NCBI GenBank assembly: GCA_964616145.1
Contig: CAZTRD010000003.1
Location: forward strand, 5,892 to 69,891
Length of the DNA stretch: 64,000 nucleotides
Direction: 5' to 3'
From: an uncultured Candidatus Saccharibacteria bacterium
Lineage (GTDB): Bacteria > Patescibacteriota > Minisyncoccia > Minisyncoccales > PEYH01
Part shown: in pieces, positions 2,749 to 60,266 of the stretch
Numbering within the stretch: position 1 is the first letter of the stretch
How the letters are laid out: each line of letters opens with the position of its first letter
Position numbers and translations under genes: made by a program
Notes under the pieces: model-generated
Databases searched by the model: none
Told to the model about the DNA's origin: nothing
Seen by the model: the letters and a program-made list of their open reading frames with translations, nothing else

Positions 2749-4134
2749 ATGGAAAATAATCATTCTACAGAAAAAATTATATCAGTCTCAGAATATATAG
2801 ACCTCCTAAACAATGTTTTAATAAATATCTCTGCTAAGATGATTGGTGAGGTCGGAGAGGTCGGCACGGATGCAAAAGGTCATGTATATTTTTCTATGCG
2901 GGATGAAAAGGATAAAAGCGTTATAAGATGCATCATGTGGGCTAGTAAATATACAATGTTTGGTATCAAACTAGAAGAGGGAATGAAGGTTATAATCCAT
3001 GGTCATTCTGATATCTACAAACCGAAGGGTTCTCTTTCGTTTATTGCAGATACAATCGAATTAGCGGGGGAGGGCGAATTAAAACGAAAATACGAAGCAT
3101 TAAAGAAAAAACTTTCAGAAGAAGGTTATTTTGACAAAGAGAGAAAAAAGACTATTCCTGCGTATGTAAAAAATATTGGAATAATTACTTCAAAGCAGGG
3201 CGCTGTTTTAGGTGATTTTTTAAGCAATGTAGGAAAACACGGATTCAATATTAAGTTAATAGATTCAAGAGTAGAAGGAGCAGAAGCTATACCTGATTTA
3301 TTATCTTCAATCAAAATATTCAAAAAAACTAACATTGAAGTTTTAATAATTATGCGAGGAGGCGGTTCTTTTGAAACATTGCAAGCCTTCAATAACGAAC
3401 TCCTGGTAAAGGAAATAGTAAATTTTCCAGTACCAGTTATTGCAGCGATAGGCCATGATAGAGATGTGCCTTTAATATCTATGGCCGCTGATCTGGAATT
3501 ATCAACACCCAGCATGGCTGTTCCAACATTAAATCGACCATGGGAACAAGCAGAATCATTATTAGAAAGAAAGACAACTAATATTTTTAATAGATATATG
3601 AATTTATTGGGCAATACAGAATATTCAATTGAACAATTTCTCAACAATATAATCACCAGTATAAATAATATATCGGAAAAATATAAAGAAATTCAGAATA
3701 AAATTTTTATTTCCTTCCAAATCTTTAAAAATAATTTAAATAATTTTAAACTAAAATTAGATAATTACCTACAAAGATCAATCAAGGAATTCTCCTCTTT
3801 GTTGTCTTCTGTAGATCCAGTAAAAAATATGGCTTTTTGTCTTTCGGTATTTCCAAAAAATCTAGAAATGTTTAAATACAAAATAGATAACTCGTGCAAA
3901 TCTTTAATTAATATATTTTCTGATATATTTTCCAATATTTCTCATAATTTATTAAATTTTGAAAGTATTATAAATAATAATAATCCTGAACGACAACTAA
4001 ACTTAGGCTATAGCATAGTAACCGTTAAAGGGAGAGTAATAAAAAGCATTAAAGATGTTAGCATAAATCAAGAAATAAATGTTAAAATAAAAGACGGCGA
4101 TATTATTTCAACTATTAAAAATATTAATAAATAA
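2749..4134 (+). CDS. xseA: Exodeoxyribonuclease VII large subunit
   Basis: N-terminal OB-fold region (GEVGEVGTDAKGHVYFSMRDEKDKSVIRCIMW). Core motifs 'IGIITSKQGAVLGDF', 'RGGGSFETLQAFNNE' and 'AIGHDRDVPL'. Long helical C-terminus. Followed directly by xseB. Confidence 0.85.
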   Translation: MENNHSTEKIISVSEYIDLLNNVLINISAKMIGEVGEVGTDAKGHVYFSMRDEKDKSVIRCIMWASKYTMFGIKLEEGMKVIIHGHSDIYKPKGSLSFIADTIELAGEGELKRKYEALKKKLSEEGYFDKERKKTIPAYVKNIGIITSKQGAVLGDFLSNVGKHGFNIKLIDSRVEGAEAIPDLLSSIKIFKKTNIEVLIIMRGGGSFETLQAFNNELLVKEIVNFPVPVIAAIGHDRDVPLISMAADLELSTPSMAVPTLNRPWEQAESLLERKTTNIFNRYMNLLGNTEYSIEQFLNNIITSINNISEKYKEIQNKIFISFQIFKNNLNNFKLKLDNYLQRSIKEFSSLLSSVDPVKNMAFCLSVFPKNLEMFKYKIDNSCKSLINIFSDIFSNISHNLLNFESIINNNNPERQLNLGYSIVTVKGRVIKSIKDVSINQEINVKIKDGDIISTIKNINK

Positions 4135-6637: not shown

Positions 6638-7768
6638 ATGAATAACATCTCAGATAAAATTATAGAAATGAGCTTTCCCAAATTAATAGTAGTGGCTATA
6701 ATTATTACTGTAATAATAGTGATAATTGCAAAGCTGGCCCAAAAAGCCAAGAGGGCCAAGGCAATAGCCAGCCTGAATGCTTCCTATGCAAAAACTCCGT
6801 ATCTGGCAGAAACTGATTTAGTTAAAGAATTGGGTTATCAGACTAATGCCGGCGATGAATCGCTTTTCCCTTCCGCAAGCCAACCGGCCGAAGAAATTAG
6901 TCTCAAAACTTATCAAGATCCAGAAGAAAAATTAGCTGATTACCGTACATTTGATTTTGATTATACTAATAAAGACAACCCGCTTCTTGAAAAAGAGCTT
7001 TTTTTGCAGTTAGAAAAAATACTCGCGCGTTATGGCCTAACCCGTGTTAAAAAGAATCCGCAGGCAGTCATTAGTATGAATTTTTTCATTGGTAAAAAAG
7101 AGCAATATACTCCTCCAACCACAGTAATAAGCACAGAAACTCAGTATGTTTGGAATACTGGCTTTATTGGCTGGAATATGGGAGGATTTACTTCTGCCAT
7201 ACCGATTACTAAATCAACCACCACTCCAGGATATACCACCATTAGCTATTACACCAATATCCGCATTAATATTTTAAATCATGCTAAATTATCATCAGGC
7301 AAGAAACCAGAAACTCCGCCATTAGTCTGGCTAGGCGAAGCTGACAGCGAAGGACCAAATTCTGATATTCGCTTCATTGCGCTTATAATGTTTGAAGCTC
7401 TGGCCAGCCATTTATCTAATCAGCCATTGGCAGTTTCAAAATTTTTAGTGTGCCGTTTCCGTTATGGAGGATTAGGATTGGGATTTGACCCAAACGATTG
7501 GCGCATAATCCGCTATATCGAACCATCTTCAATTGCAGACGATAATAATCTCAAACCCGGGGATATCCTGATTAAAATTAATGATAATAGTCCCAGCCGA
7601 GCTTTTACGGCTTCTAAAGATCAAAACCCGTATTTCCTGCATGTTCTATCTAATCCCGGCAAATCAGATGTAAAATTATTAATCAAGTCAGGGGCTACCG
7701 GTAAAAAAATATCACTTTCTTTAAAGCCTCGTTTAGAAAATCGCTATGTGAGAGTTGACGATAAATAA
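6638..7768 (+). CDS. Membrane-anchored protein with C-terminal PDZ-like domain
   Basis: N-terminal TM helix (FPKLIVVAIIITVIIVIIAKL). The C-terminal 'GLGLGFDPNDWRIIRYIEPSSIADDNNLKPGDILIKINDN' looks like a PDZ carboxylate-binding loop and core. The middle region is unassigned. Confidence 0.5.
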   Translation: MNNISDKIIEMSFPKLIVVAIIITVIIVIIAKLAQKAKRAKAIASLNASYAKTPYLAETDLVKELGYQTNAGDESLFPSASQPAEEISLKTYQDPEEKLADYRTFDFDYTNKDNPLLEKELFLQLEKILARYGLTRVKKNPQAVISMNFFIGKKEQYTPPTTVISTETQYVWNTGFIGWNMGGFTSAIPITKSTTTPGYTTISYYTNIRINILNHAKLSSGKKPETPPLVWLGEADSEGPNSDIRFIALIMFEALASHLSNQPLAVSKFLVCRFRYGGLGLGFDPNDWRIIRYIEPSSIADDNNLKPGDILIKINDNSPSRAFTASKDQNPYFLHVLSNPGKSDVKLLIKSGATGKKISLSLKPRLENRYVRVDDK

Positions 7769-7880
7769 AAGGCGTAAATAATAAAATTTATTATTTTCCC
7801 TATCTATCCTTTGATTGAAAATCCTAAGAGTTTTTGAAGGAGTAATATAAATTTCGTTAATGAATTAGTAAAATGATTTT

Positions 7881-8000
7881 ATGGAACCCCTAGCTTCAAA
7901 GATAAGGCCAAAAACATTAAAGGACTTTGTAGGCCAGGAGCATTTGGTTGGGGAAGGGAAACCATTAAATATTGCAATAAAACCGCTAAAGAATGTTTAG
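7881..8000 (+). pseudogene. rarA: Displaced 5' fragment of rarA (first 34 codons, then 5 unrelated codons and TAG)
   Basis: 7881-7983 aligns to 10595-10697 (103 nt, 5 mismatches). It translates to MEPLASKIRPKTLKDFVGQEHLVGEGKPLNIAIK, identical to the RarA N-terminus, then diverges (PLKNV*). Confidence 0.85.
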
Positions 8001-8041
8001 TAGAGAAATGTATTTAATAATAATCTTTAACGTTTTAGACT

Positions 8042-8064
8042 AATCGCTTAAAAGCGATTTTTCT
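8042..8064 (+). terminator. Intrinsic terminator after the rarA fragment
   Basis: AATCGCTT-AA-AAGCGATT perfect 8-bp stem followed by TTTTCT. Confidence 0.55.
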
Positions 8065-8069
8065 ATTCA

Positions 8070-8097
8070 TTGACTTATATATAAAAAATGGTAGTCT
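8070..8097 (+). promoter_or_regulatory. Sigma70-type promoter of high-GC cassette A
   Basis: TTGACT (8070-8075), a 16-nt spacer, then TAGTCT (8092-8097) preceded by TGg (extended -10). Confidence 0.5.
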
Positions 8098-8128
8098 TGG
8101 ATTAGATTCCAACGAGTAAGGAGGACTT

Positions 8129-8644
8129 GTGATGGGAGAGAAGAAGGAGCACTTCGACGCTGTAACCTTGGCTTTCGTAGCCATCGCCATCGCCTGTGCC
8201 ATCTTCGGCAGTCTGGCCGCAGGGCTTATCCCTGCCAGAGAAGCGGGATTCGCCCTACTATCGTGGGCTGCTACTGGTCACGTGATCACGCTGATCTGCG
8301 TCATCATCCAACACGAGACCAACGCAGCTGTCGTACTCTTCGTCTTCATGGGCTTCTGGATCTGCGCTGGACTGGGTCTCAGCTTCTTGTCATCGCATGG
8401 ACTGCACAGGCTTCTGATGGTGATCGAGCCCACGCTGCTGGCTATCACCTTCCTGTGGCAGTTCTTGTACCGGAACAAGCGACAGCTGAGGTGCGTTCTC
8501 CTAGGCTTGGCCTGGGTAATCCTATGGCTCTTTGTCTCCAAGTTCATTCCCCAGTTAGGCGTGATGACGCCATACTGGGTGTGGGCTCTGGGCCTCTATC
8601 TGCTTCTATTGGCATTCTGGCGAAGACTGCACCCGGCAGGATAG
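8129..8644 (+). CDS. High-GC cassette A: 171-aa polytopic (about 6 TM) membrane protein, no recognised family
   Basis: GC jumps to ~55 % (hand count). AAGGAGGA lies 7 nt before ATG 8132 (GTG 8129 in the track). Codon third positions are G/C-rich. Six hydrophobic stretches are present (e.g. VTLAFVAIAIACAIFGSLAAGLI, AAVVLFVFMGFWICAGLGLSFL). Confidence 0.7.
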   Translation: MMGEKKEHFDAVTLAFVAIAIACAIFGSLAAGLIPAREAGFALLSWAATGHVITLICVIIQHETNAAVVLFVFMGFWICAGLGLSFLSSHGLHRLLMVIEPTLLAITFLWQFLYRNKRQLRCVLLGLAWVILWLFVSKFIPQLGVMTPYWVWALGLYLLLLAFWRRLHPAG

Positions 8645-8666
8645 AGGCACGATGATGCTCAACAAT

Positions 8667-8706
8667 GCACGGCACTAACCTTCGGGTTGGTGCCGTGTTC
8701 TGATTT
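8667..8706 (+). terminator. Intrinsic terminator of cassette A
   Basis: GCACGGCACUAACC-UUCG-GGUUGGUGCCGUG forms a ~14-bp GC-rich stem with a UUCG loop, followed by a U-rich tract (uucugauuu). Confidence 0.75.
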
Positions 8707-8757
8707 AATATATAATAATTTTGAACTATCTGATTTAATGTTACAATACAATGAATC

Positions 8758-9534
8758 ATGAACCTAATTCAAACCCAAGCTAAAGAAATCTTCACCAAAA
8801 CCAAACTACTTGGTTGCGATTGGGTGATTAATCAATATGTAGGCTGCGATCATGCCTGCCTCTATTGTTATGCCAAATTCATTTCTCGCTGGAAACCTCT
8901 AGATTATGGAAAATGGGGGACATGGGTAGAAGCAAAGATAAACGGAGGGGAATTAGTAAAGAATAGATATGTGAAAGGATTGGCATATATGAGTTCAATT
9001 TCTGATCCATACCAATCTATTGAAAAGGAATTGAAATTAACCAGAAAGATTCTGGAAAATCTTGATAAAAGAATCCATCTTATCATTCAAACCAAATCAG
9101 ATTTGGTTTTAAGAGATATTGATCTATTTAAACAATTTCAAAACATTGAAATTGGTTTTACGATAAACAGCTTTAATGGAATTTCAAAAGAAATTTTTGA
9201 ACCTTTTTCCGTTTCCAATGAAAAAAGAATAGAAGCTTTAAGGATTTTGAAGGAAAACGGATTAAAAACCTTTGTTTTTGTCAGCCCTATTATTCCTGGA
9301 TTGATAGACTTAAAGAAAGTAATTGATAATACCAAACAATTTACTGATTATTATTGGTTTGAATTCATTAACGTAAAAGCTGCGGGAAAGGAATTTATAG
9401 AAGCATTAAAAAAACATTTTCCTGAAAGCTATAATGTTTTAAATGATAAAAATGAATTCTTAAAATTCATTGCAGAATCAAAACAAATTATTTCTTCTCA
9501 AAACATTAATGTTAGGGGAATAGAAATACATTGA
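8758..9534 (+). CDS. Radical SAM protein (COG1533/SplB-like 'DNA repair photolyase' family)
   Basis: CxxxCxxC cluster motif 'GCDHACLYCYAKF' near the N-terminus, in the context INQYVGC...CYA typical of COG1533. About 258 aa TIM-barrel size. Confidence 0.6.
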   Translation: MNLIQTQAKEIFTKTKLLGCDWVINQYVGCDHACLYCYAKFISRWKPLDYGKWGTWVEAKINGGELVKNRYVKGLAYMSSISDPYQSIEKELKLTRKILENLDKRIHLIIQTKSDLVLRDIDLFKQFQNIEIGFTINSFNGISKEIFEPFSVSNEKRIEALRILKENGLKTFVFVSPIIPGLIDLKKVIDNTKQFTDYYWFEFINVKAAGKEFIEALKKHFPESYNVLNDKNEFLKFIAESKQIISSQNINVRGIEIH

Positions 9535-9574
9535 TTTTACAGATATTATTAAGAGTGGTAATATAAAGCATAAT

Positions 9575-10591
9575 ATGAAATTCCCTAGAACAAAGAAAAT
9601 AATATTCGTTAATAACAAAGGTGGAGTAGGAAAAACCACTTTGGCTTTTAATTGCGCGGTTTCTTTCGCAAAACAAGGATATAAGACAGTTCTAGTTGAT
9701 TTAGATCCCCAATGTAATCTGACCAGGCTTGCTATGGGCGAGCACTTCTACGAAAAAACCCTATTCTCAGATTCAGAAAAAACCATATATGACGTCTTGC
9801 GTGGAGTAATAGAGGGGGGATCCGATGTTAATATAGATGTTCAATTTTTACCAGTAAAAGCAAGCAGTAATCTTACATTACTCAAGGGAGATATTAGGCT
9901 TTCCTTATATGAAAGCATATTAATGTCCGCCTATGGACAAGCAGCAGCCGGAGCTCCCATAGGATATTTTCAAACAAGCGCGATAGATCGTTTTTTAAGA
10001 GAAAAGGGGCTAAGCGAACAGATAGATATTTTTGTCATAGACACGTCTCCAAGCTTAGGAATACTTAATGAAATAATCCTATTAGGGGCCGACTATTTTG
10101 TAGTGCCAATGATGCCAGACGCATTTAGCGTCCAAGGAATAGAGAATCTAGGAATAGTCTATGAACGCTGGAAGGCACTATGGCGCAATACCGCTAAGGC
10201 GCTTTCCGGAGATACTGAAACAAAATTCGTTCTTAACGGAGATCCGCTTTTTATAGGATATATTGTAAACTCTTACAATGTATATGGTCATCAGCCCATT
10301 GCTGATCATAGAATCTGGATGGGAAAAATTCCAGAAAAAGTAAAAAAATACCTCTCAGAAAAGCACTGCCGCAACGGGTTAGTAGAACAGAGCTGGAAGC
10401 AACCACTTCAAATTATTCAAGATTACGGTCGCATTCCGGCAAAATGCCAAGAATTAGGCGTAGCTATTTTTGATCTTGATCCGCAGTTAATAGCAGAGCA
10501 TCAGCAAGGTACGAAAGACAACATAGAGAAATCAAAAGAAGAATTTGATAATCTATCCAAAGCTATTATAGAAACACTTTCCGTCTATTAG
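9575..10591 (+). CDS. ParA/MinD-superfamily ATPase with long C-terminal extension
   Basis: Deviant Walker A 'NNKGGVGKTTLAFN', 'VLVDLDPQCNLT' and Walker B 'IFVIDTSPSLG'. 338 aa. The stop lies 3 nt before the rarA start. Confidence 0.75.
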   Translation: MKFPRTKKIIFVNNKGGVGKTTLAFNCAVSFAKQGYKTVLVDLDPQCNLTRLAMGEHFYEKTLFSDSEKTIYDVLRGVIEGGSDVNIDVQFLPVKASSNLTLLKGDIRLSLYESILMSAYGQAAAGAPIGYFQTSAIDRFLREKGLSEQIDIFVIDTSPSLGILNEIILLGADYFVVPMMPDAFSVQGIENLGIVYERWKALWRNTAKALSGDTETKFVLNGDPLFIGYIVNSYNVYGHQPIADHRIWMGKIPEKVKKYLSEKHCRNGLVEQSWKQPLQIIQDYGRIPAKCQELGVAIFDLDPQLIAEHQQGTKDNIEKSKEEFDNLSKAIIETLSVY

Positions 10592-10594
10592 TAA

Positions 10595-10697
10595 ATGGAA
10601 CCATTAGCTTCAAAGATAAGGCCAAAAACATTAAAGGACTTTGTAGGCCAGGAGCATTTGGTTGGAGAAGGAAAACCTTTAAATATTGCAATAAAAC
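10595..10697 (+). repeat. Right copy of the 103-bp rarA-5' direct repeat (left copy 7881-7983)
   Basis: 98 of 103 positions are identical by manual alignment. All five differences fall on third codon positions or a Leu first position and are synonymous (ccc/cca P, cta/tta L, ggg/gga G twice, cca/cct P). Confidence 0.9.
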
Positions 10698-11725
10698 AGA
10701 AACATCTGTTTTCCTTTATCTTCTGGGGCCCTCCCGGATCCGGAAAGACAACTTTGGCTAAGATATATGCTCATAGTTTAAATGCAGACCTATATGAATT
10801 ATCTGCAGTTTCTGCTGGAAAAGCAGATATCAGAAAGATCGTAATGGAAAATACATTACAGCCTAAGGTTTTGTTTTTAGATGAAATACATAGGTTTAAT
10901 AAAGCTCAACAGGATTTCTTACTCCCATATGTAGAAAGAGGGGAATTGGCTCTAATAGGAGCTACTACAGAAAACCCAAGCTTTGAAGTAATTGCTCCAT
11001 TACTATCCCGTTGCAGGGTTTTTGTCTTAAACGAATTGTCGCCGGAAGAAATGGTAACAATTATCAAGCGTACAGGTTTTAAGATGGATAAAAAAGCAGC
11101 GGATTGGTTAGTTGCAATGGCTAATGGCGATGCCAGGCAAGCCATTACAATGCTTGAGAATTGTTCTGAGTTATATAAATCAATAACTGTAGATAATTTA
11201 AAGAATGCTCTTCAATCCAAATTCTTACGATATGATAAAAAAGGAGAGGAACACTATAACACCATCTCTGCTTTCATTAAAAGCATGAGAGCAAGCCAAC
11301 CAGATGCAGCCCTCTACTATTTAGCCAGAATGATTGATTCTGGTGAAGATCCTAAATTCATTGCCAGAAGAATGGTAATCTTTGCCTCTGAAGACATAGG
11401 ATTAGCTCAACCAACTGCGTTGGTTGTAGCTAATGATGTATTCAGAGCAGTAGAGAATATTGGTTTGCCAGAATGCGGAATCAATCTGGCTCATGGAGTA
11501 GCATATCTTTGCAAATGCAAGAAGAATAGAGATGCATATAACGGATACATGGCTGCGATGAAAGATGTCCAAGATTATGGAAATCTTCCTATTCCTTTAA
11601 TGTTAAGGAATCCTGAAACAAAACTAATGAAGGATTTAGATTATGGCAAAGGATATGAAAAATATTCTAAAGAAGACTATTTGCCAGAGAAATTAAAGGG
11701 AAGAAAATATTTAAGAGAGTCTTGA
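10595..11725 (+). CDS. rarA: Replication-associated recombination protein A (AAA+ ATPase RarA/MgsA)
   Basis: 'LRPKTLKDFVGQEHL', Walker A 'GPPGSGKTTLA', Walker B 'VLFLDEIHRFNKAQQD', 'GATTENPSFEV', and a C-terminal MgsA domain with 'HYNTISAFIKSMRASQPDAALYYLARMIDSGEDPKFIARRM'. Confidence 0.9.
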   Translation: MEPLASKIRPKTLKDFVGQEHLVGEGKPLNIAIKQKHLFSFIFWGPPGSGKTTLAKIYAHSLNADLYELSAVSAGKADIRKIVMENTLQPKVLFLDEIHRFNKAQQDFLLPYVERGELALIGATTENPSFEVIAPLLSRCRVFVLNELSPEEMVTIIKRTGFKMDKKAADWLVAMANGDARQAITMLENCSELYKSITVDNLKNALQSKFLRYDKKGEEHYNTISAFIKSMRASQPDAALYYLARMIDSGEDPKFIARRMVIFASEDIGLAQPTALVVANDVFRAVENIGLPECGINLAHGVAYLCKCKKNRDAYNGYMAAMKDVQDYGNLPIPLMLRNPETKLMKDLDYGKGYEKYSKEDYLPEKLKGRKYLRES

Positions 11726-11758: not shown

Positions 11759-12034
11759 ATGAAAACAGTAATCAATATTAAAACCGATCCGGAGGTTAAA
11801 ATTAATGCCCAGAAAATTGCCAAAGAACTAGGTATAGCTCTTAGCGATGTTATCAATGCTTCTCTCAGAAACTTTATTAGAACGCGGGAGGTATATCTTT
11901 CTGCTATTCCAAGGATGACTCCAGAATTTGAAATTTTGCTTGGCAGAGTGGAGGACGATATAAAAAGAGGAAAGAATCTTTCTCCGGCATTTTCTTCTAT
12001 GGATGAAATTAATAATTACTTAGATAATTTATGA
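11759..12034 (+). CDS. Type II antitoxin (RelB/DinJ-like)
   Basis: 91-aa protein directly upstream of a RelE/YafQ-type toxin and overlapping it by 4 bp (ATGA). The N-terminal ribbon-helix-helix-like segment is 'VINIKTDPEVKINAQKIAKELGIALSDVINASLRNFI'. Confidence 0.65.
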   Translation: MKTVINIKTDPEVKINAQKIAKELGIALSDVINASLRNFIRTREVYLSAIPRMTPEFEILLGRVEDDIKRGKNLSPAFSSMDEINNYLDNL

Positions 12035-12294
12035 TTTCAATTATATTCCATAGAGATTTTGAGAAGAAATATATAAAACTATCGCAGAAAGATAAACAGA
12101 GAATAAAAGAAAGAATAAGAATTTTCAAGGAAGATATATTTAATCCCATACTTAATAATCATCCTCTAGAGGGTAAATATAAAGGGTATAGGAGTATTAA
12201 TATTACAGGAGATCTAAGGATTATATATAAATTACAAAATATTAATGTTATTATTTTCGTAGCCATCAATAATCATAGCAACCTATATAAATAG
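12031..12294 (+). CDS. Type II toxin, RelE/YafQ family mRNA interferase
   Basis: 'FEKKYIKLSQKDKQRIKERIRIF...NHPLEGKYKGYRSINITGDLRIIYK' matches the RelE/YafQ pattern (HxL.G...g.....i..d.R.iy). Confidence 0.7.
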   Translation: MISIIFHRDFEKKYIKLSQKDKQRIKERIRIFKEDIFNPILNNHPLEGKYKGYRSINITGDLRIIYKLQNINVIIFVAINNHSNLYK

Positions 12295-12736: not shown

Positions 12737-12976
12737 ATGGCAGGTTTAGTTATTCTCGGTTTAGTACTTATCGTTCTGGGTTGGGCCCTACAAGCATTCT
12801 TTACGTATAAAGGAGAAAGAGAAATACATATGCTTTTCCTTATCTGCTACGTATTAGGAGCATTTATTCTAGCTCTTGATGGATATCTTGAGAGTTCATG
12901 GCTTCCAGCAGTGCTTAATACCTTAGCTGTAATAGGTGTGGCATTGGTGATAAAAAAGATAGGGGTTAAAAAATAG
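12737..12976 (+). CDS. Small membrane protein (79 aa, 3 hydrophobic helices)
   Basis: MAGLVILGLVLIVLGWALQAFF, MLFLICYVLGAFILAL and LPAVLNTLAVIGVALVI. No family recognised. Confidence 0.5.
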   Translation: MAGLVILGLVLIVLGWALQAFFTYKGEREIHMLFLICYVLGAFILALDGYLESSWLPAVLNTLAVIGVALVIKKIGVKK

Positions 12977-12989
12977 ACAGGATAGGTTT

Positions 12990-13030
12990 AAAAACAGAAC
13001 GGGAGGGGATCGTAGTCCTCTCCCGTTTAC
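12990..13030. terminator. GC-rich hairpin between convergent genes (bidirectional terminator)
   Basis: AACGGGAGGGGA-ucguag-UCCUCUCCCGUU forms a ~12-bp stem with one G-U pair. A T-run follows on the minus strand (ctgtttttaaa) and a weaker one on the plus strand (tttacgttt). Confidence 0.65.
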
Positions 13031-13998
13031 GTTTCCTCGCTGTACGACACTTCCCAGTCCGATGTTCCAGACGGGAAGACCTCTGCGACGATGTAGTCCT
13101 TCTGGGCATCCAGACCGGTAGTGATGAGGAGCTCAATCCCGCCAAGTCTGCCAGAAGGGTCTCCCAGCGTTTCTGCCTGAGCGGCGACCTGGCACTCGAC
13201 AGGATCTGTCGCAATTTCAAGACCAAGAAGTTGTCTGAGATCGTAATAGAACCAATCCCTGACTGATCCATCGATCTTCTTGAGAGCTATTGCCAGCAGG
13301 TACAAAGGCCACTTTTCAGCAACCTCTTGCACCGCTTGCACTCCTTTCAGATCGGGGAATTTCTTTTTGCTCTCGAAATTGAATGTCCCTATGTAGCTAT
13401 AGAGCGCCACCCAGACGAATCTGGAAAAACCCTGAAGCTGATATTGCAGTTTCTTGTTCCCGTTAATCTCAGCCCAGAAGATATCGCGCACCAATAGAGC
13501 ATCTTCCCTTGAGAAGGTGAATCTCACGCCCCTAGGGACAGGAATTTCCACCTGTCTAGATCTAAGGGTTTTGATTCTTCTCCCGGGCAGATAGACTCTA
13601 TTGATTCGAATATTGTGGGTTGGAGATTTCCACGTCATTACCGTTACCCTGGTTATCCTTTGGATCAGCGTGAAAAGTTGCGGAGCAACTAGGAGGTATT
13701 GCTCTTCTGACAGAACTGCTTGTTTCTCGCGTCGAGGTATATATGATTCTCTCGGCAGTTTATCTCTGCCGTCGGACTTGTGATACGGCCTCGTGCGCCA
13801 GAGACCAATTTCCATCAGAACAGCTTGCTCGCTAGTACCGTCATGAACACCGACTACCGCTATCACATCCAATCTGGCTCGAGGATTCTCCGTGACCCTA
13901 AAAGAGGCATTGCCAGGATCTATGATGATCAGATACCTGGCATTTCTTTCAATGGTCTCCACGTCCCGTCTTGCTCTCTCTGGATCGAACCCTGACAT
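13027..13998 (-). CDS. High-GC cassette B: 324-aa soluble protein, no recognised family
   Basis: About 57 % GC (hand count). AGGAGGGAGG lies 7 nt upstream of the ATG at 13998 (MSGFDPERARR...). The longer track ORF (to 14091) adds 31 codons made of the AT-rich promoter region. An open frame of over 320 codons in GC-rich DNA is very unlikely by chance. Confidence 0.7.
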   Translation of the reverse strand: MSGFDPERARRDVETIERNARYLIIIDPGNASFRVTENPRARLDVIAVVGVHDGTSEQAVLMEIGLWRTRPYHKSDGRDKLPRESYIPRREKQAVLSEEQYLLVAPQLFTLIQRITRVTVMTWKSPTHNIRINRVYLPGRRIKTLRSRQVEIPVPRGVRFTFSREDALLVRDIFWAEINGNKKLQYQLQGFSRFVWVALYSYIGTFNFESKKKFPDLKGVQAVQEVAEKWPLYLLAIALKKIDGSVRDWFYYDLRQLLGLEIATDPVECQVAAQAETLGDPSGRLGGIELLITTGLDAQKDYIVAEVFPSGTSDWEVSYSEET

Positions 13999-14062
13999 TG
14001 ACTTTCCTCCCTCCTTTCGCATTTCAGCGAGTTTTTTGTACAAGGTGCAGAAATGATATTTC

Positions 14063-14091
14063 ACCTTAAAGGGTATATAAAAAAATGTCAA
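14063..14091 (-). promoter_or_regulatory. Sigma70-type promoter of cassette B
   Basis: On the minus strand: TTGACA (14091-14086), a 17-nt spacer, then TAAGGT (14068-14063). Confidence 0.45.
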
Positions 14092-16605: not shown

Positions 16606-16634
16606 TTGACTAAAATTGTTTAATTGATTAAGAT
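16606..16634 (+). promoter_or_regulatory. Sigma70-type promoter of cassette C
   Basis: TTGACT (16606-16611), a 17-nt spacer, then TAAGAT (16629-16634). Confidence 0.55.
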
Positions 16635-16666
16635 TTACAAGAACACTCGTCCGCAAAGGAGATACC

Positions 16667-16945
16667 TTGAGCAAACAGAAGCGCACCGGCAGGAAAGATG
16701 CCCCTACTGTCCTGGAGATTCTGCTAAGGCATTCAAGCATTACTGATGCCTCAGCAAAGACGCTCTTCGACGGATCGGGCATAGGAGACGATCGCAGTGA
16801 CTTTGCTGCTATCGCCGGGGAGATCAACTACTACTTCGCGCCCAGGCCATCGATTGATCCAAGCTGGATGAAAACATTGGCGACGACCCCGGGGATCAGG
16901 TTCAATGTCTTGATCGATAGGGTCGAACATGACCGAACAAGGTAG
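16667..16945 (+). CDS. High-GC cassette C: 92-aa protein, no recognised family
   Basis: AAGGAG lies 5 nt before the TTG start at 16667. About 55 % GC (hand count). The ORF spans the whole GC-rich block and is followed by a strong terminator. No TM segment. Confidence 0.55.
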   Translation: MSKQKRTGRKDAPTVLEILLRHSSITDASAKTLFDGSGIGDDRSDFAAIAGEINYYFAPRPSIDPSWMKTLATTPGIRFNVLIDRVEHDRTR

Positions 16946-16961
16946 TCATACAACGGGCACC

Positions 16962-17000
16962 GACGCCTGAGGCCAAAAACCTCGGGCGTCTTCCTTTTTT
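16962..17000 (+). terminator. Intrinsic terminator of cassette C
   Basis: GACGCCUGAGG-ccaaaaa-CCUCGGGCGUC forms an 11-bp stem with one G-U pair, followed by UUCCUUUUUU. Confidence 0.8.
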
Positions 17001-20361: not shown

Positions 20362-20425
20362 AGTAATCAGCTCTTCAAGAAGGAGGTGAGGTGCCATTAC
20401 CGCAGTAATTGCGATCCTGAAGGGC

Positions 20426-20914
20426 ATGTGGGCAGTTTTACTCGGTGGCGCGCTAGGAGTTGGCGCATGGAGATTCAACGGTGTGCCGTTCGAACAGGCT
20501 TGGATGACGCTGGTAATTTACAGCGTCGTTGTCATCCTGCTGGTTTTCTTTTTCGTTAACATGGCCGAGAAGCTGTGGGAACGAATCAGAGAGACTGATC
20601 TGGGGCAGTCAATCGAACGGACAAGGATGGCATCCCAGATACAATCTGTCATAGGGCTGTTGAGAAACCACAACAACGGCACTAGCCAGATGAAGCACAA
20701 CGTCAAGAAAAAGTTGCTCAAGACAGCTCCCTGGCTAGTAGTACTCTTGTACTACTTGCCGATCCCAGTAGTCGGAGATGCTGTAGTTATTCTAGCCAAA
20801 GCATTAGTAGACACGAAAGTGTTGAAAATGCGATGGGTACTCCCGGTACTCTTCGGGGGAGTTATCTTCAAGAGTTGGATCACCTGCGTGATCTGGTACC
20901 AAAAACCTCTATGA
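20426..20914 (+). CDS. High-GC cassette D: 162-aa 4-TM membrane protein, no recognised family
   Basis: About 52 % GC (hand count) with a G/C3-rich frame. Hydrophobic helices include AWMTLVIYSVVVILLVFFFV, PWLVVLLYYLPIPVVGDAVVILA and WVLPVLFGGVIFKSWITCVIW. The start is uncertain. The AGGAGG at 20381-20386 is 40 nt from ATG 20426. The frame is open back to 20390, and an in-frame ATT at 20396 would have ideal SD spacing. Confidence 0.6.
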   Translation: MWAVLLGGALGVGAWRFNGVPFEQAWMTLVIYSVVVILLVFFFVNMAEKLWERIRETDLGQSIERTRMASQIQSVIGLLRNHNNGTSQMKHNVKKKLLKTAPWLVVLLYYLPIPVVGDAVVILAKALVDTKVLKMRWVLPVLFGGVIFKSWITCVIWYQKPL

Positions 20915-20953
20915 GAAACGGCAAGGCCAAAAGTCATGCCGTTCTCTATTTTT
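20913..20953 (+). terminator. Intrinsic terminator of cassette D
   Basis: GAG(A)AACGGCA ... UGCCGUUCUC stem (7 bp + 3 bp with one bulge) followed by UAUUUUUAU. Confidence 0.65.
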
Positions 20954-20960
20954 ATCAACA

Positions 20961-20990
20961 TTGACAATAACTCATCTTTAATGATATAAT
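20961..20990 (+). promoter_or_regulatory. Consensus sigma70 promoter of cassette E
   Basis: TTGACA (20961-20966), an 18-nt spacer, then TGaTATAAT (extended -10; TATAAT at 20985-20990). A 10-bp stem-loop (CAGCACAUCG-uaag-CGAU(c)GUGCUG, 20996-21020) sits at the predicted 5' end of the transcript. Confidence 0.65.
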
Positions 20991-21033
20991 ATAGGCAGCA
21001 CATCGTAAGCGATCGTGCTGAAAGGAAGGTTAT

Positions 21034-21258
21034 ATGAACGAGGTTCAGTTAGAAGATGTTAGATGCGACATTCGTGTCATCACGGATGTAGGCATCTGCG
21101 TCTTCGAAAGAACCTCCTCTGGGTCGTTGGGTCGCCTAAAGATGAAAGACGATCCGTCAACCGATGAGGGGGAAGTAAGGAAACTGGGCCTCCTAGCGCT
21201 TGCCGAACAGAGGGAATGTACTTTTGTCGGCTACGCGCTCAAGGAGGGCGATCGCTAG
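21034..21258 (+). CDS. High-GC cassette E: 74-aa acidic soluble protein, no recognised family
   Basis: AAGGAAGG lies 5 nt before the ATG. About 55 % GC (hand count). A strong terminator follows immediately. Confidence 0.55.
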   Translation: MNEVQLEDVRCDIRVITDVGICVFERTSSGSLGRLKMKDDPSTDEGEVRKLGLLALAEQRECTFVGYALKEGDR

Positions 21259-21307
21259 CCGCCACGAGTCAAACAGACACACGACTCGTGGCGAGCTTTC
21301 TTTTTTA
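21259..21307 (+). terminator. Intrinsic terminator of cassette E
   Basis: CGCCACGAGUC-(12-nt loop)-GACUCGUGGCG forms an 11-bp stem (21260-21293), followed by AGCUUUCUUUUUU. Confidence 0.8.
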
Positions 21308-57874: not shown

Positions 57875-57903
57875 TTGACAGGGGTTTTGCCCCTATATAT
57901 AAT
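57875..57903 (+). promoter_or_regulatory. Consensus sigma70 promoter upstream of the recombinase pair
   Basis: TTGACA (57875-57880), a 17-nt spacer (containing GGGGTTTTGCCCC), then TATAAT (57898-57903). The TTG 'start' of the track ORF is the -35 hexamer. Confidence 0.6.
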
Positions 57904-57946
57904 GAATATTGTTACTGAGTATAATAACTCTTACACTCATAAATAC

Positions 57947-59320
57947 ATGCTGAAAAGCCATCTTCCTATAGCAAAACACATACCGTCATTTTTAAATTAT
58001 TGCGATGATAAGGGTCTTTCAGAAAAAACTAATATTAATTATGAATCTTTTTTGAAAAGATTTTTAAAATGGTTGGAAAAAGAAAATAAAAATAATCTAC
58101 TTCCCCATGAACTTACTGTCACCGATATTAATTCTTATAAAACATATTTATCCTCCTTTTCGGGCAAAAACGGCCAAACGCTTAAAACAATTACACAAAA
58201 CTACTATTTAATCGCTTTAAGGGCTCTTATGAGCTATTTTACGGTGAAAGACATAGAATCAATCCCTTTTAGCAAGATACATCTTTTAGAAAATAAAAAA
58301 ATCAGAAAAGATATAAATTTGCTTGACCAAAATCAAATCAGACAACTTTTAACATCTCCTAGCACGCTAAATTCTATTGGCTTACGCGATAGAGCTATCT
58401 TGGGAATATTAATTTATGGCGGTCCGAAGGTTGATCAATTGAAAAATCTTAATAAAAACCAGATCGAGCAGGACGAATTTATTCCGAAAGAGGTTCTCCA
58501 GATGGTTAAAGCATATTTAAGAACCAGAGATGACGACTGTGAGGCTTTATTTATTAATTATCGTCATGGAAAACATATTCATGAGAGATTGACATCTCGT
58601 TCTATACAAAGAATTATTAATTATCATGGAAAAAAAGTTAAACTACCCTTTCCTATTACTCCGGAGGCGTTAAGGTGGTCCCGCGCTTATGCTCTTTTGA
58701 ATAAAAGAGTTGAGATTGAAAAAGCGTATTCTCACAGAATATTTACGATTAAAGATTATAGTAGCACAAAAATTACATCAAATTTTATTGACAATCCCAA
58801 AGCAATAAAAATCCCCTCCCCTACTTGGTATATTGTTGAAAATATCATTGAAAAAGAAATATCCTGGCTAAGGAGCACTCTTTCTTTCTTGCCTGAAGGA
58901 TATAAATTAAATCCTTCTTTCTTAAGATGCGATGATTGTATTTTAAGAAAAATAGCAATTTTAATTGCAAGCGGAACAGTTAAGGCAACTCAATTTGAAG
59001 GCAAAAATAATGAAGATATGTGGAACGGTCTTATAAAGGAACCCGGTCTTAAAAGGTTAAGTAGCCATGGACAGGAATGGCATAAAAAAATGATGGATGT
59101 AGTTCATGGATATTTTAATTCGAAAAATTATAAGGTAGTCTCGGAACCGGCTCTAAATTATGGGCGCGCAGATTTAGAGGTTTATTCAAATCATGAAAAA
59201 ACTATTGTTGAGGTCGGGACCGTTTCGTTGTATAAACTTTGGTACAATCTTTCAACAATGAAAAATGTTAATTTCTTAATTATCCCCTCTGAAAACGTAA
59301 TTATAGAATTTAATACATGA
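57947..59320 (+). CDS. Tyrosine-recombinase-like protein with degenerate catalytic residues and an extra C-terminal (possibly nuclease-fold) domain
   Basis: The N-terminal SAM-like core-binding domain is 'FLNYCDDKGLSEKTNINYESFLKRFLKW'. 'GLRDRAILGILIYGGPKVDQLKNL' has Lys where the family has the catalytic Arg (GLRxSE). 'ITPEALRWSRAY' replaces HxLRH. 'IEKAYSHR' retains a Tyr. The extra ~170 aa end in 'YKVVSEPALNYGRADLEVYSNHEKTIVEVGT'. Start taken at ATG 57947, downstream of the promoter. Confidence 0.6.
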   Translation: MLKSHLPIAKHIPSFLNYCDDKGLSEKTNINYESFLKRFLKWLEKENKNNLLPHELTVTDINSYKTYLSSFSGKNGQTLKTITQNYYLIALRALMSYFTVKDIESIPFSKIHLLENKKIRKDINLLDQNQIRQLLTSPSTLNSIGLRDRAILGILIYGGPKVDQLKNLNKNQIEQDEFIPKEVLQMVKAYLRTRDDDCEALFINYRHGKHIHERLTSRSIQRIINYHGKKVKLPFPITPEALRWSRAYALLNKRVEIEKAYSHRIFTIKDYSSTKITSNFIDNPKAIKIPSPTWYIVENIIEKEISWLRSTLSFLPEGYKLNPSFLRCDDCILRKIAILIASGTVKATQFEGKNNEDMWNGLIKEPGLKRLSSHGQEWHKKMMDVVHGYFNSKNYKVVSEPALNYGRADLEVYSNHEKTIVEVGTVSLYKLWYNLSTMKNVNFLIIPSENVIIEFNT

Positions 59321-59324
59321 TCAA

Positions 59325-60266
59325 ATGGAAAAAAACCCACTTCCTAAATTGGATGATTTTCTTCTAAATTTACAGGTGAACAATCTTTCTCAAGAAACGG
59401 TCTATAATTATGAAAGAGATTTAGAAGTATTCCAAAATTTCCTGCAAGAAATAAATATTGATTTTGATAATGTTAATAAAATGACTATTCTTAATTACAA
59501 GGCCTATTTGGTATCACGAGACCGAAAAACTCCTAAAAAACATCTGGGAGAGAAAAAACTTAATGAATATTCTATTAATAGAATGCTATCCTCCTTGCGA
59601 TCTTATTTCAAATATCTTGTAGATATGGATTACGACTCCCCTATTTCTCCCGAATCTATAAAACTTATAAAAACAACTCGTAAACATCCCCAGGTGGCGG
59701 AATTCAATGAAATCGTAAAATTAATAGAATCCCCTAGCCATATGGAGAAAAATAAACAAATAGCAGCAAGGAATCGCGCTATGTTAGAAATGCTCTTCTC
59801 TACCGGCATGAGAATCTCAGAATTAGTCGGATTAAAAACTACTCAAATCGACAATTCTGGACGTATTTTTATTTTGGGGAAGGGGAAAAAAGAAAGATTT
59901 GTCTATTTGACAGCTCGGGCACAAGAATATCTGAAACAATATTTGGATATAAAAGGTCCAGCTTCTTCACCATTTCTTTTTGTCCCCTATCGTGGAAGAA
60001 ATGTAGGAAAAAAGGATAAAAAAATATCAGCAAATTATTTGCAAGAAAAAATAAAAAAATATAGAGAATTATTAGGCATCAATATTCCTATATCTGCCCA
60101 TTCATTACGTCATGGATTTGCGACTTATTTGGCTGAGAATGGCGCAAATCCTGCGGCAATACAAATATTATTAGGTCACGAATCATTAGATACTACAACT
60201 AGATATGTACATGCTTCGGATCGTTACGCAGAAAAAACACATCGGCAATTTCATCCCCTTAAATAA
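59325..60266 (+). CDS. Site-specific tyrosine recombinase, XerC/XerD family
   Basis: 'RNRAMLEMLFSTGMRISELVGLK' (Arg I), 'GKGKKERFVYL' (Lys), 'HSLRHGFATYL' (His-x-x-Arg) and 'LLGHESLDTTTRYVH' (His, Tyr). Confidence 0.9.
   Translation: MEKNPLPKLDDFLLNLQVNNLSQETVYNYERDLEVFQNFLQEINIDFDNVNKMTILNYKAYLVSRDRKTPKKHLGEKKLNEYSINRMLSSLRSYFKYLVDMDYDSPISPESIKLIKTTRKHPQVAEFNEIVKLIESPSHMEKNKQIAARNRAMLEMLFSTGMRISELVGLKTTQIDNSGRIFILGKGKKERFVYLTARAQEYLKQYLDIKGPASSPFLFVPYRGRNVGKKDKKISANYLQEKIKKYRELLGINIPISAHSLRHGFATYLAENGANPAAIQILLGHESLDTTTRYVHASDRYAEKTHRQFHPLK

Follow-up and report, generated by a model that had tools for sequence, protein, structure and literature searches.

A small island bracketed by two allelic copies of the rarA 5′ end in a Patescibacteria genome, and a contig joining it head to tail

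The DNA analysed here (the window, 64,000 nucleotides (nt) of contig CAZTRD010000003.1, positions 5,892 to 69,891, assembly GCA_964616145.1) stems from an uncultured, ultra-small Candidatus Saccharibacteria bacterium of the Patescibacteriota, members of the Candidate Phyla Radiation (CPR). Within it, a 2.7-kb island lies directly upstream of the DNA-repair and housekeeping gene rarA (mgsA) and is bracketed by two copies of the first 103 nt of this gene. With moderate confidence we favour the view that the island is a 2714-nt unit that integrates and excises by Campbell-type recombination via its homology to the rarA 5′ end, most likely through the homologous recombination of the host. This view is based on the differences between the two copies and on an independent contig in which the island is joined head to tail through a hybrid of both.

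A repeat finder detected the direct repeats at positions 7881–7983 and 10595–10697 of the plus strand (103 nt, 95% identity, 2714 nt from start to start), each covering rarA codons 1–34 plus 1 nt; the similarity ends after repeat position 103. In a codon-by-codon comparison the copies differ at five of the 103 positions (9, 10, 72, 78, and 84), with C, C, G, G, A in the left copy and A, T, A, A, T in the right copy, and all five differences are synonymous (CCC/CCA for Pro, CTA/TTA for Leu, GGG/GGA for Gly twice, and CCA/CCT for Pro). A core of 61 identical nt separates variable positions 10 and 72. The repeats, their extent and their five silent differences had been described in an earlier note on this DNA, and both analyses reproduce that description.

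Synonymous changes make up 21–28% of the single-base changes in the 34 repeat codons, and the probability that five out of five are synonymous is 4e-4 to 1.7e-3. The formal dN/dS estimate that the earlier note had called for (Nei-Gojobori) counted 5 differences at 22 synonymous sites and none at 80 non-synonymous sites (dS about 0.27, dN 0), and no non-synonymous difference emerged on re-alignment. At four of the five positions the left copy has G or C where the functional copy has A or T. Purely synonymous differences, together with changes that run against the AT mutational drift of a genome with a guanine-cytosine (GC) content of 34%, argue that two functional rarA alleles met here and that the left copy is not a decaying one. 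The claim that the copies diverged under purifying selection and derive from two functional alleles therefore stands.

The right copy opens an intact rarA gene (10595–11725, plus strand, read from the island side) that encodes 376 amino acids (aa) with RuvB_N/AAA, AAA_assoc_2, and MgsA_C domains, as expected for RarA/MgsA, and with 85–94% identity to RarA of Nealsonbacteria/Paceibacteria-type Patescibacteria, which marks the host as a CPR bacterium. The left copy lies in a truncated open reading frame (ORF) of 39 codons (7881–8000, plus strand), which ends with PLKNV* and was called as a 39-aa gene in an independent contig (L086). This stub now faces the old promoter side of rarA, a left chromosomal flank (7769–7880, plus strand; contiguous with serpin-DUF4136 in L086) with a promoter-like site at 7755–7782, and it ends before a palindromic, terminator-like hairpin at 8042–8059. 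From the sequence it follows that the left-side promoter would now drive the stub, and that intact rarA was placed 3 nt behind the stop codon of a ParA-like gene. The first 103 nt of rarA are the top or joint-top conserved block at the DNA level in four of eight relatives and are among the top blocks in the others; it is plausible that this conserved stretch serves as a homology anchor between lineages.

Independent assemblies reproduce both junctions. One contig (L086, ERZ27248920) runs from serpin-DUF4136 through the left copy into cassette A, the first gene module of the island, another (L001, ERZ27248937) extends from the stub through to TruB, and three (L002, L088, and L089) cross the junction of the ParA-like gene, the right copy, and rarA. 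All five match the window at 99.1–100% identity and were drawn from four European Nucleotide Archive (ENA) samples and one Logan run. The left, attL-type junction reads ...AAAATGATTTT/ATGGAACCCCTAGC...GGTTGGGGAAGGGAAACCATTAAAT...AAAAC/CGCTAAAG, and the right, attR-type junction reads ...GTCTATTAGTAA/ATGGAACCATTAGC...GGTTGGAGAAGGAAAACCTTTAAAT...AAAAC/AGAAACATC.

A further contig (L087, ENA ERZ27248895, 2695 nt) corresponds to window positions 8047–10697 followed by 7984–8027, so that the end of the ParA-like gene, the repeat, and the left end of the island follow each other in a head-to-tail (attP-type) junction. Its repeat is a hybrid with the right-copy bases AT at positions 9–10 and the left-copy bases G, G, A at positions 72, 78, and 84, as would result from the reciprocal product of a single crossover inside the 61-nt identical core. 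Of the predicted 2714-nt circle, 2695 nt are present in L087, which has two private single-nucleotide polymorphisms (SNPs) and no branch to attL or attR. The contig L001, from an assembly with k=141, starts at window position 7891 (repeat position 11), where the CC path (attL) and the AT path (attP) would be expected to merge if both were present in the sample. Evidence that a circular or tandem form of the island exists is thus good, though at the level of assemblies.

The chromosomal attL (CC..GGA), the chromosomal attR (AT..AAT), and the observed junction (AT..GGA) are reciprocal chimeras, as expected for Campbell-type recombination. In the most economical model attP would be AT..GGA (ParA flank plus island-left flank) and attB would be CC..AAT (DUF4136 flank plus rarA body), which would make both chromosomal copies chimeras. 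Positions 7984–10697 would then represent the integrated 2714-nt circularisable unit, composed of a spacer, cassette A, a radical SAM gene, the ParA-like gene, and a single 103-nt rarA 5′ segment. It would have entered the chromosome when this segment underwent one crossover with the rarA gene already present there. The 103 nt would thereby have become direct repeats, the old promoter would be left with a dead stub of 39 codons, and intact rarA would directly follow the ParA-like gene. A crossover between the repeats would join the ends of the unit again, head to tail. The lack of a recombinase in the island, a crossover in the longest identical stretch, and the lack of a common core motif elsewhere make the host homologous-recombination machinery the most likely enzyme. 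The model presumes a free circle, the action of RecA rather than a trans-acting recombinase, and the direction of the original event, and any role of the cargo would be a presumption as well; the window does not contain recA.

The earlier note had taken the left copy as native and the element as the supplier of a replacement 5′ end. This is not supported as stated, as close relatives carry right-copy bases at the variable sites (L084/85 at 5/5, L083 at 4/5). Moreover, a hybrid junction produced by a single crossover in the core makes both chromosomal copies chimeric, so that either allele may have been the native one. RarA of the closest relatives is 94% (L083 and L084/85) or 88% (L177) identical to that of the window, and homology to the window begins at the rarA ATG; a Fic, glycosyltransferase, or HD protein gene ends 5–10 nt before it. 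None of the three cargo genes (ParA-like, radical SAM, cassette A) and no further rarA fragment was found near rarA in 80 species-representative loci, nor in L083, L084/85, and L177; a count over 85 rarA loci likewise gave neither the island nor another piece of rarA. Species-level relatives have no upstream synteny of rarA in common, so that an equivalent of the empty site is not definable, and the alignment of rarA loci proposed earlier yielded none. Look-ups of the exact proteins (RarA, the DUF4136 neighbour, ParA-like, cassette A, and radical SAM) retrieved filled sites and L087 only. That the island targets the rarA 5′ end, as had been proposed, is unproven with no comparable insertion in the 80 loci or the three closest relatives. 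The proposal of an integrating and excising unit fared better in one part: the head-to-tail junction of L087 and the breakpoint of L001 support it, while no empty site turned up.

The cargo was as described before: a high-GC cassette A, a COG1533-type radical SAM gene, a ParA-like gene, and no integrase. The island starts with an AT-rich 59-nt spacer (7984–8042, plus strand), which directly follows the repeat in L087 and has no homologue in any of the fetched loci. The cassette A module follows (8043–8728, plus strand; its limits were set by homology with locus L175) and has a GC content of 0.56 and a GC content at third codon positions (GC3) of 0.71, compared to a host GC3 of about 0.30. It is self-contained, with the hairpin, a promoter-like TTGACT...TATA, the Shine-Dalgarno sequence GGAGGA, an orphan high-GC ORF for a 170-aa multi-pass membrane protein (8132–8644, plus strand), and a terminator (8667–8698). 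Among 5.8 billion proteins a single cluster is homologous (P0242, 82%). Cassette A does not resemble an integron cassette, as it has its own promoter and terminator and neither an attC-like imperfect palindrome pair nor IntI was found. At its boundary with the radical SAM gene a perfect 11-nt direct repeat (TCTGATTTAAT) occurs at 8699–8709 and 8729–8739 (plus strand).

The radical SAM gene (8758–9534, plus strand, 258 aa; COG1533/PA0069/‘mobile pair B’-like) matches PF04055 with 48.7 bits and PHROG_13321 with 1.5e-44, and stays below the curated cutoffs of TIGR04470 (149 versus 410 bits) and NF033668 (115 versus 360). On these scores its product appears related to the TIGR04470 ‘mobile pair B’/PA0069 family without being a member. 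The ParA/MinD-superfamily ATPase gene (9575–10591, plus strand, 338 aa) matches PF13614 with 108 bits (cutoff 27) and PHROG_164 over its full length (3.8e-42); the partition ParA model NF041546 gave 67 bits at a cutoff of 180, so that superfamily membership is all that can be assigned. By sequence, the best match in the PDB is 3pg5, an uncharacterised protein, and the AlphaFold model of the C-terminal region is poor (predicted local distance difference test score of 51, shallow alignment). Full-length relatives of 27–30% identity occur on plasmids and phages, including Pf1 and P22-like phages.

Pfam, NCBIfam, PHROGs, and PADLOC revealed no integrase, resolvase, or transposase in the three island ORFs, and none of them (membrane orphan, radical SAM, ParA-like ATPase) is a relaxase or another transfer or mobilisation gene. 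Rep, ParB, iterons, DnaA boxes, and centromere repeats were not found in the island either, and the PADLOC defence scan gave only weak P-loop matches. The search for the radical SAM/ParA pair on plasmids or phages, which the earlier note had suggested, returned separate relatives of 27–34% identity, and no record with both among the matches listed. IMG/VR contains neither the junction sequence nor relatives of the radical SAM or the ParA-like protein. In a Pfam scan of the whole window the sole recombinases are two adjacent Xer-like tyrosine recombinase genes 47 kb from the island, one for 481 aa with a weak match (57875–59320) and one for 313 aa that is XerC/XerD-like (59325–60266).

Parts of the cargo were also present in two loci from Logan runs (L175 and L176). 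Here, the radical SAM module (86% nt identity) and the cassette A module (82.5%) are separated by 7 nt and lie about 3 kb upstream of rarA, in the order radical SAM to cassette A, which is the reverse of the order in the window (L175 2268–3767 and L176 504–2003 versus window 8043–9549). The modules are followed by an AP-endonuclease-like gene, a helix-turn-helix gene, an M78 peptidase gene, and an ORF for 181 aa, and then by the rarA start. The circularly permuted order argues for circular or tandem intermediates. The presence of the cargo near rarA in L175 implies that it belongs to the rarA neighbourhood of the clade, so that the island is not necessarily a fresh import.

Homologues of the ParA-like gene are widespread in the CPR (70–87% identity, always about 338 aa), and their neighbours are never conserved. 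Surveying direct repeats of at least 45 nt that lie 1–4.5 kb apart, we counted 20 per 624 kb around ParA-like genes versus 2 per 1107 kb around rarA genes, and 8 of 83 ParA-like genes are enclosed by a repeat pair. In L096 a 1.2-kb unit with the ParA-like gene only lies between copies of the comM 3′ end (1441–1521 and 2638–2718; 81 nt, where six of the differences are synonymous and three conservative). The ends of L138 are identical over 99 nt (1–99 and 2878–2976), indicating a circular contig of 2877 nt, and a second pair in it consists of fragments of a membrane-protein gene (123–236 and 1154–1267; 11 synonymous and 2 non-synonymous codons). A 4-kb unit in L159 is bounded by TspO-gene fragments (2–74 and 4038–4110). 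Fragments of the ParA-like gene itself form the repeats in L116 (5046–5102 and 6963–7019) and L172 (1666–2134 and 4296–4607), where they flank toxin-antitoxin or AbiEii cargo. No core motif common to the ParA-like-flanking repeats was found. The contigs of about 2.7 kb that carry other ParA-like proteins (P0145 and P0223) are no circles; their size is a coincidence.

It is conceivable, though in our estimate improbable, that the ParA-like ATPase marks a CPR-wide class of mobile circles of 1.2–4 kb that have no recombinase or replicase and capture conserved gene ends (rarA, comM, tspO, and the ParA-like gene itself). Imprecise excision would capture a neighbouring conserved gene end, and this piece would then serve integration by the host RecA in the next lineage. 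Such a link would explain how 70–87% identity is found across CPR classes despite the lack of conserved neighbours, and it would mean that genes flow by ‘homology hitchhiking’ among bacteria that rely on the uptake of DNA.

Several points weigh against Campbell-type integration and excision of the island, or against its extension to other ParA-like genes. An empty (attB) site is absent from all assemblies and relatives examined. L087 lacks 19 nt (8028–8046) and its ends do not close; a tandem duplication of the island would yield an identical junction, and a mis-join of the assembly graph through the 61-nt core might still conceivably be its source. A circle with no recognisable replication or transfer function would leave persistence and spread unexplained, and the two Xer-like recombinases of the genome could act in trans. 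The island may also be rearranged resident DNA and not an import. About 90% of the ParA-like loci have no flanking repeats, the repeats of L139, L140, and L167 are repetitive extragenic palindromic (REP) or terminator-like motifs and lend no support, and neither does the repeat of L112 (fmt 3′ end), which is not dominated by synonymous changes.

Instead of the homologous recombination machinery, a tyrosine recombinase provided from elsewhere, by the Xer-like pair (57875–60266) or by a helper element, might recognise a core sequence within the 5′ end of rarA. In this case the island would be a non-autonomous passenger, comparable to the SXT/prfC or dusA islands minus int. Such elements produce direct repeats of a target gene, restore its reading frame, and give rise to an attP-type junction (PMC2791158, PMC8409611), two Xer-like genes are present within the window, and the single junction would fit one fixed crossover point in positions 11–71. 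Nevertheless we regard this mechanism as rather unlikely: no recombinase is encoded in the island or within 47 kb, and no other rarA locus is occupied, hence there is no evidence of a site preference. Furthermore, the repeats that flank the ParA-like gene elsewhere come from the 5′ or 3′ ends of various genes and have no common core motif, and a duplication of 103 nt far exceeds the needs of a recombinase core. A one-off transfer or rearrangement could likewise have put foreign or relocated DNA with a foreign rarA 5′ piece upstream of rarA, with no recurrent mobility, either by uptake from a CPR lineage with the order cassette A-radical SAM-ParA-rarA or by homology-facilitated illegitimate recombination; in that case unequal crossing-over that amplified the island in tandem, or an assembly path, would account for the head-to-tail junction. 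Such an event would fit the location of the radical SAM and cassette A modules near rarA in the relative L175, and genes that lie 3–21 nt from the rarA ATG are usual in relatives, so that the ParA-rarA adjacency could be native to a donor. The unclosed ends of L087 and the failure to find attB also point this way. To our mind a single event is nonetheless doubtful, as L087 is unbranched through the hybrid junction and has two private SNPs, which suggests that the head-to-tail form dominated the sample, L001 breaks exactly at a variant boundary, and the ParA-like gene is found again in other units bracketed in a similar way and in a circular contig.

Alternatively, the left copy could have arisen by duplication within the genome and be a decaying pseudogene or a selected gene for a 39-aa peptide. 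The frame of the stub is open, the upstream region looks native, and a terminator-like hairpin follows. Five out of five synonymous differences (P < 2e-3), four of which go from AT to GC in a genome of 34% GC, are however incompatible with neutral decay, while a selected N-terminal RarA stub is without precedent; in addition, a dS of 0.27 demands an old event, yet close relatives do not have the duplication. We therefore consider this origin very unlikely. The duplication might also be an artefact of assembly or binning, since the window was assembled from a metagenome and chimeric joins can form at repeats. The junctions are seen again, at 99–100% identity, in five other contigs (four ENA samples and one Logan run), and two copies that differ at five positions are no collapsed repeat, which makes an artefact extremely unlikely.

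Further observations concern rarA and its neighbourhood. The RelB/YafQ toxin-antitoxin genes just 3′ of rarA (11759–12294) are replaced by a nucleotidyltransferase-type pair in L083 (2931–3351), so that rarA is variable on both sides. Among strain variants, SNPs cluster within rarA at 10894–10921 and 11020–11055 (versus L002 and L088), with 13 of the 17 mismatches of L088 in rarA; these clusters look like short allelic recombination tracts. This CPR-type RarA is 70–76% identical to RarA on contigs of Acidobacteriota (Pyrinomonadaceae), including the complete chromosome CP065003.1, which suggests inter-phylum transfer of rarA or mis-binning (loci L043, L035, L044, L064, L072, and others, with rarA at 8001–9100 in most).

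The window as a whole is AT-rich (about 34% GC); it contains no tRNA or tmRNA genes, and no relevant Rfam families were found in it. High-GC (46–56%) orphan ORF cassettes are located at 12976–14050, 16626–17000, 20400–21300, and, as cassette A, at 8043–8728, each with an AT-rich promoter-like site, a strong Shine-Dalgarno sequence, and a GC-rich terminator. Their ORFs have no match in Pfam, NCBIfam, PADLOC, or PHROG, and the four cassettes have no boundary motifs in common. One of these cassettes, that of the ORF at 13027–14091 (minus strand), is absent in the relative L083 although the genes on either side are the same, and cassette A is still GC-rich in two lineages that are 14–18% diverged. 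At the left end of the window, an OLD-family nuclease gene (AAA_15 and TOPRIM, 266–2047) adjoins an N6/N4 DNA methyltransferase gene (2051–2731), and the two are likely a defence module.

Mobile elements of CPR/Patescibacteria are barely described: in a groundwater survey only 17 of 664 plasmids were linked to these bacteria, and the biology of their mobile elements was called an open question (PMC12023590). If Campbell-type recombination is confirmed for the island, it would be a concrete case of DNA that enters or leaves a CPR chromosome without an element-encoded recombinase. A housekeeping gene conserved at the DNA level would provide the attachment site, and the expression of rarA would be rewired as a by-product. 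The five variable bases of the repeat offer a means of distinction, as the distribution of crossovers separates homologous from site-specific recombination.

Synonymous gene-end duplicates are known from e14 at icd of Escherichia coli, where an intact gene and a displaced gene-end fragment (icdC) differ mostly by synonymous changes, and excision swaps the alleles and leaves clustered synonymous ‘mutations’ (PMC13626634). Like e14 (and phage 21), the island is bracketed by an intact gene and a fragment with synonymous differences; unlike the island, e14 is a prophage of 15 kb that targets a 3′ end, encodes an integrase, and is excised site-specifically upon SOS induction. SXT/R391 at the prfC 5′ end and the dusA elements supply a new promoter and N-terminal coding sequence, and the target gene stays functional (PMC2791158, PMC8409611). 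The island shares with them the use of the 5′ end of a housekeeping gene that is kept working, and at rarA, too, attL/attR repeats of target-gene sequence and a full-length product are found. These elements differ from the island in their size of 20–100 kb, their own tyrosine recombinase and directionality factor, and their conjugation or mobilisation genes, and the N-terminus they supply changes amino acids, whereas the RarA protein is unchanged. Neither an element-encoded recombinase, nor an empty attB with reuse of the site, nor transfer functions were found for the island.

Integrative mobile elements exploiting Xer (IMEX) also have no integrase of their own and use the host XerCD, and Xer-like genes exist in this genome; they integrate at dif, while the site of the island is rarA codons 1–34. 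No dif-like core was identified at the rarA site, where the core was not tested for a cryptic Xer site. Small partition-ATPase plasmids and phages (PHROG_164) carry full-length relatives of the ParA-like protein. In contrast to an autonomous ParA plasmid, the island has no Rep or other replication initiator, no origin, no ParB, and no centromere repeats.

In Campbell-type insertion-duplication, as in the formation of Hfr (high frequency of recombination) strains and F′ plasmids or with suicide vectors, one homology segment gives rise to two chimeric direct repeats, the same reaction run backwards excises the DNA, and a dedicated recombinase is not required. The rarA island shares with it the duplication of one homology segment and the chimeric repeats. 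Such insertions usually involve plasmids with replicons or laboratory constructs, and we know of none for a natural replicon-less CPR unit of 2.7 kb. Judged by these comparisons, the island appears to work like the gene-end integrative elements but not to be a member of them. Synonymous gene-end duplicates as such are already known, and what seems unusual here is a unit without integrase, replicase, or transfer gene, the hints that its ParA-like gene is bracketed elsewhere by diverged copies of further conserved gene ends (comM in L096), its tiny size, and its CPR host.

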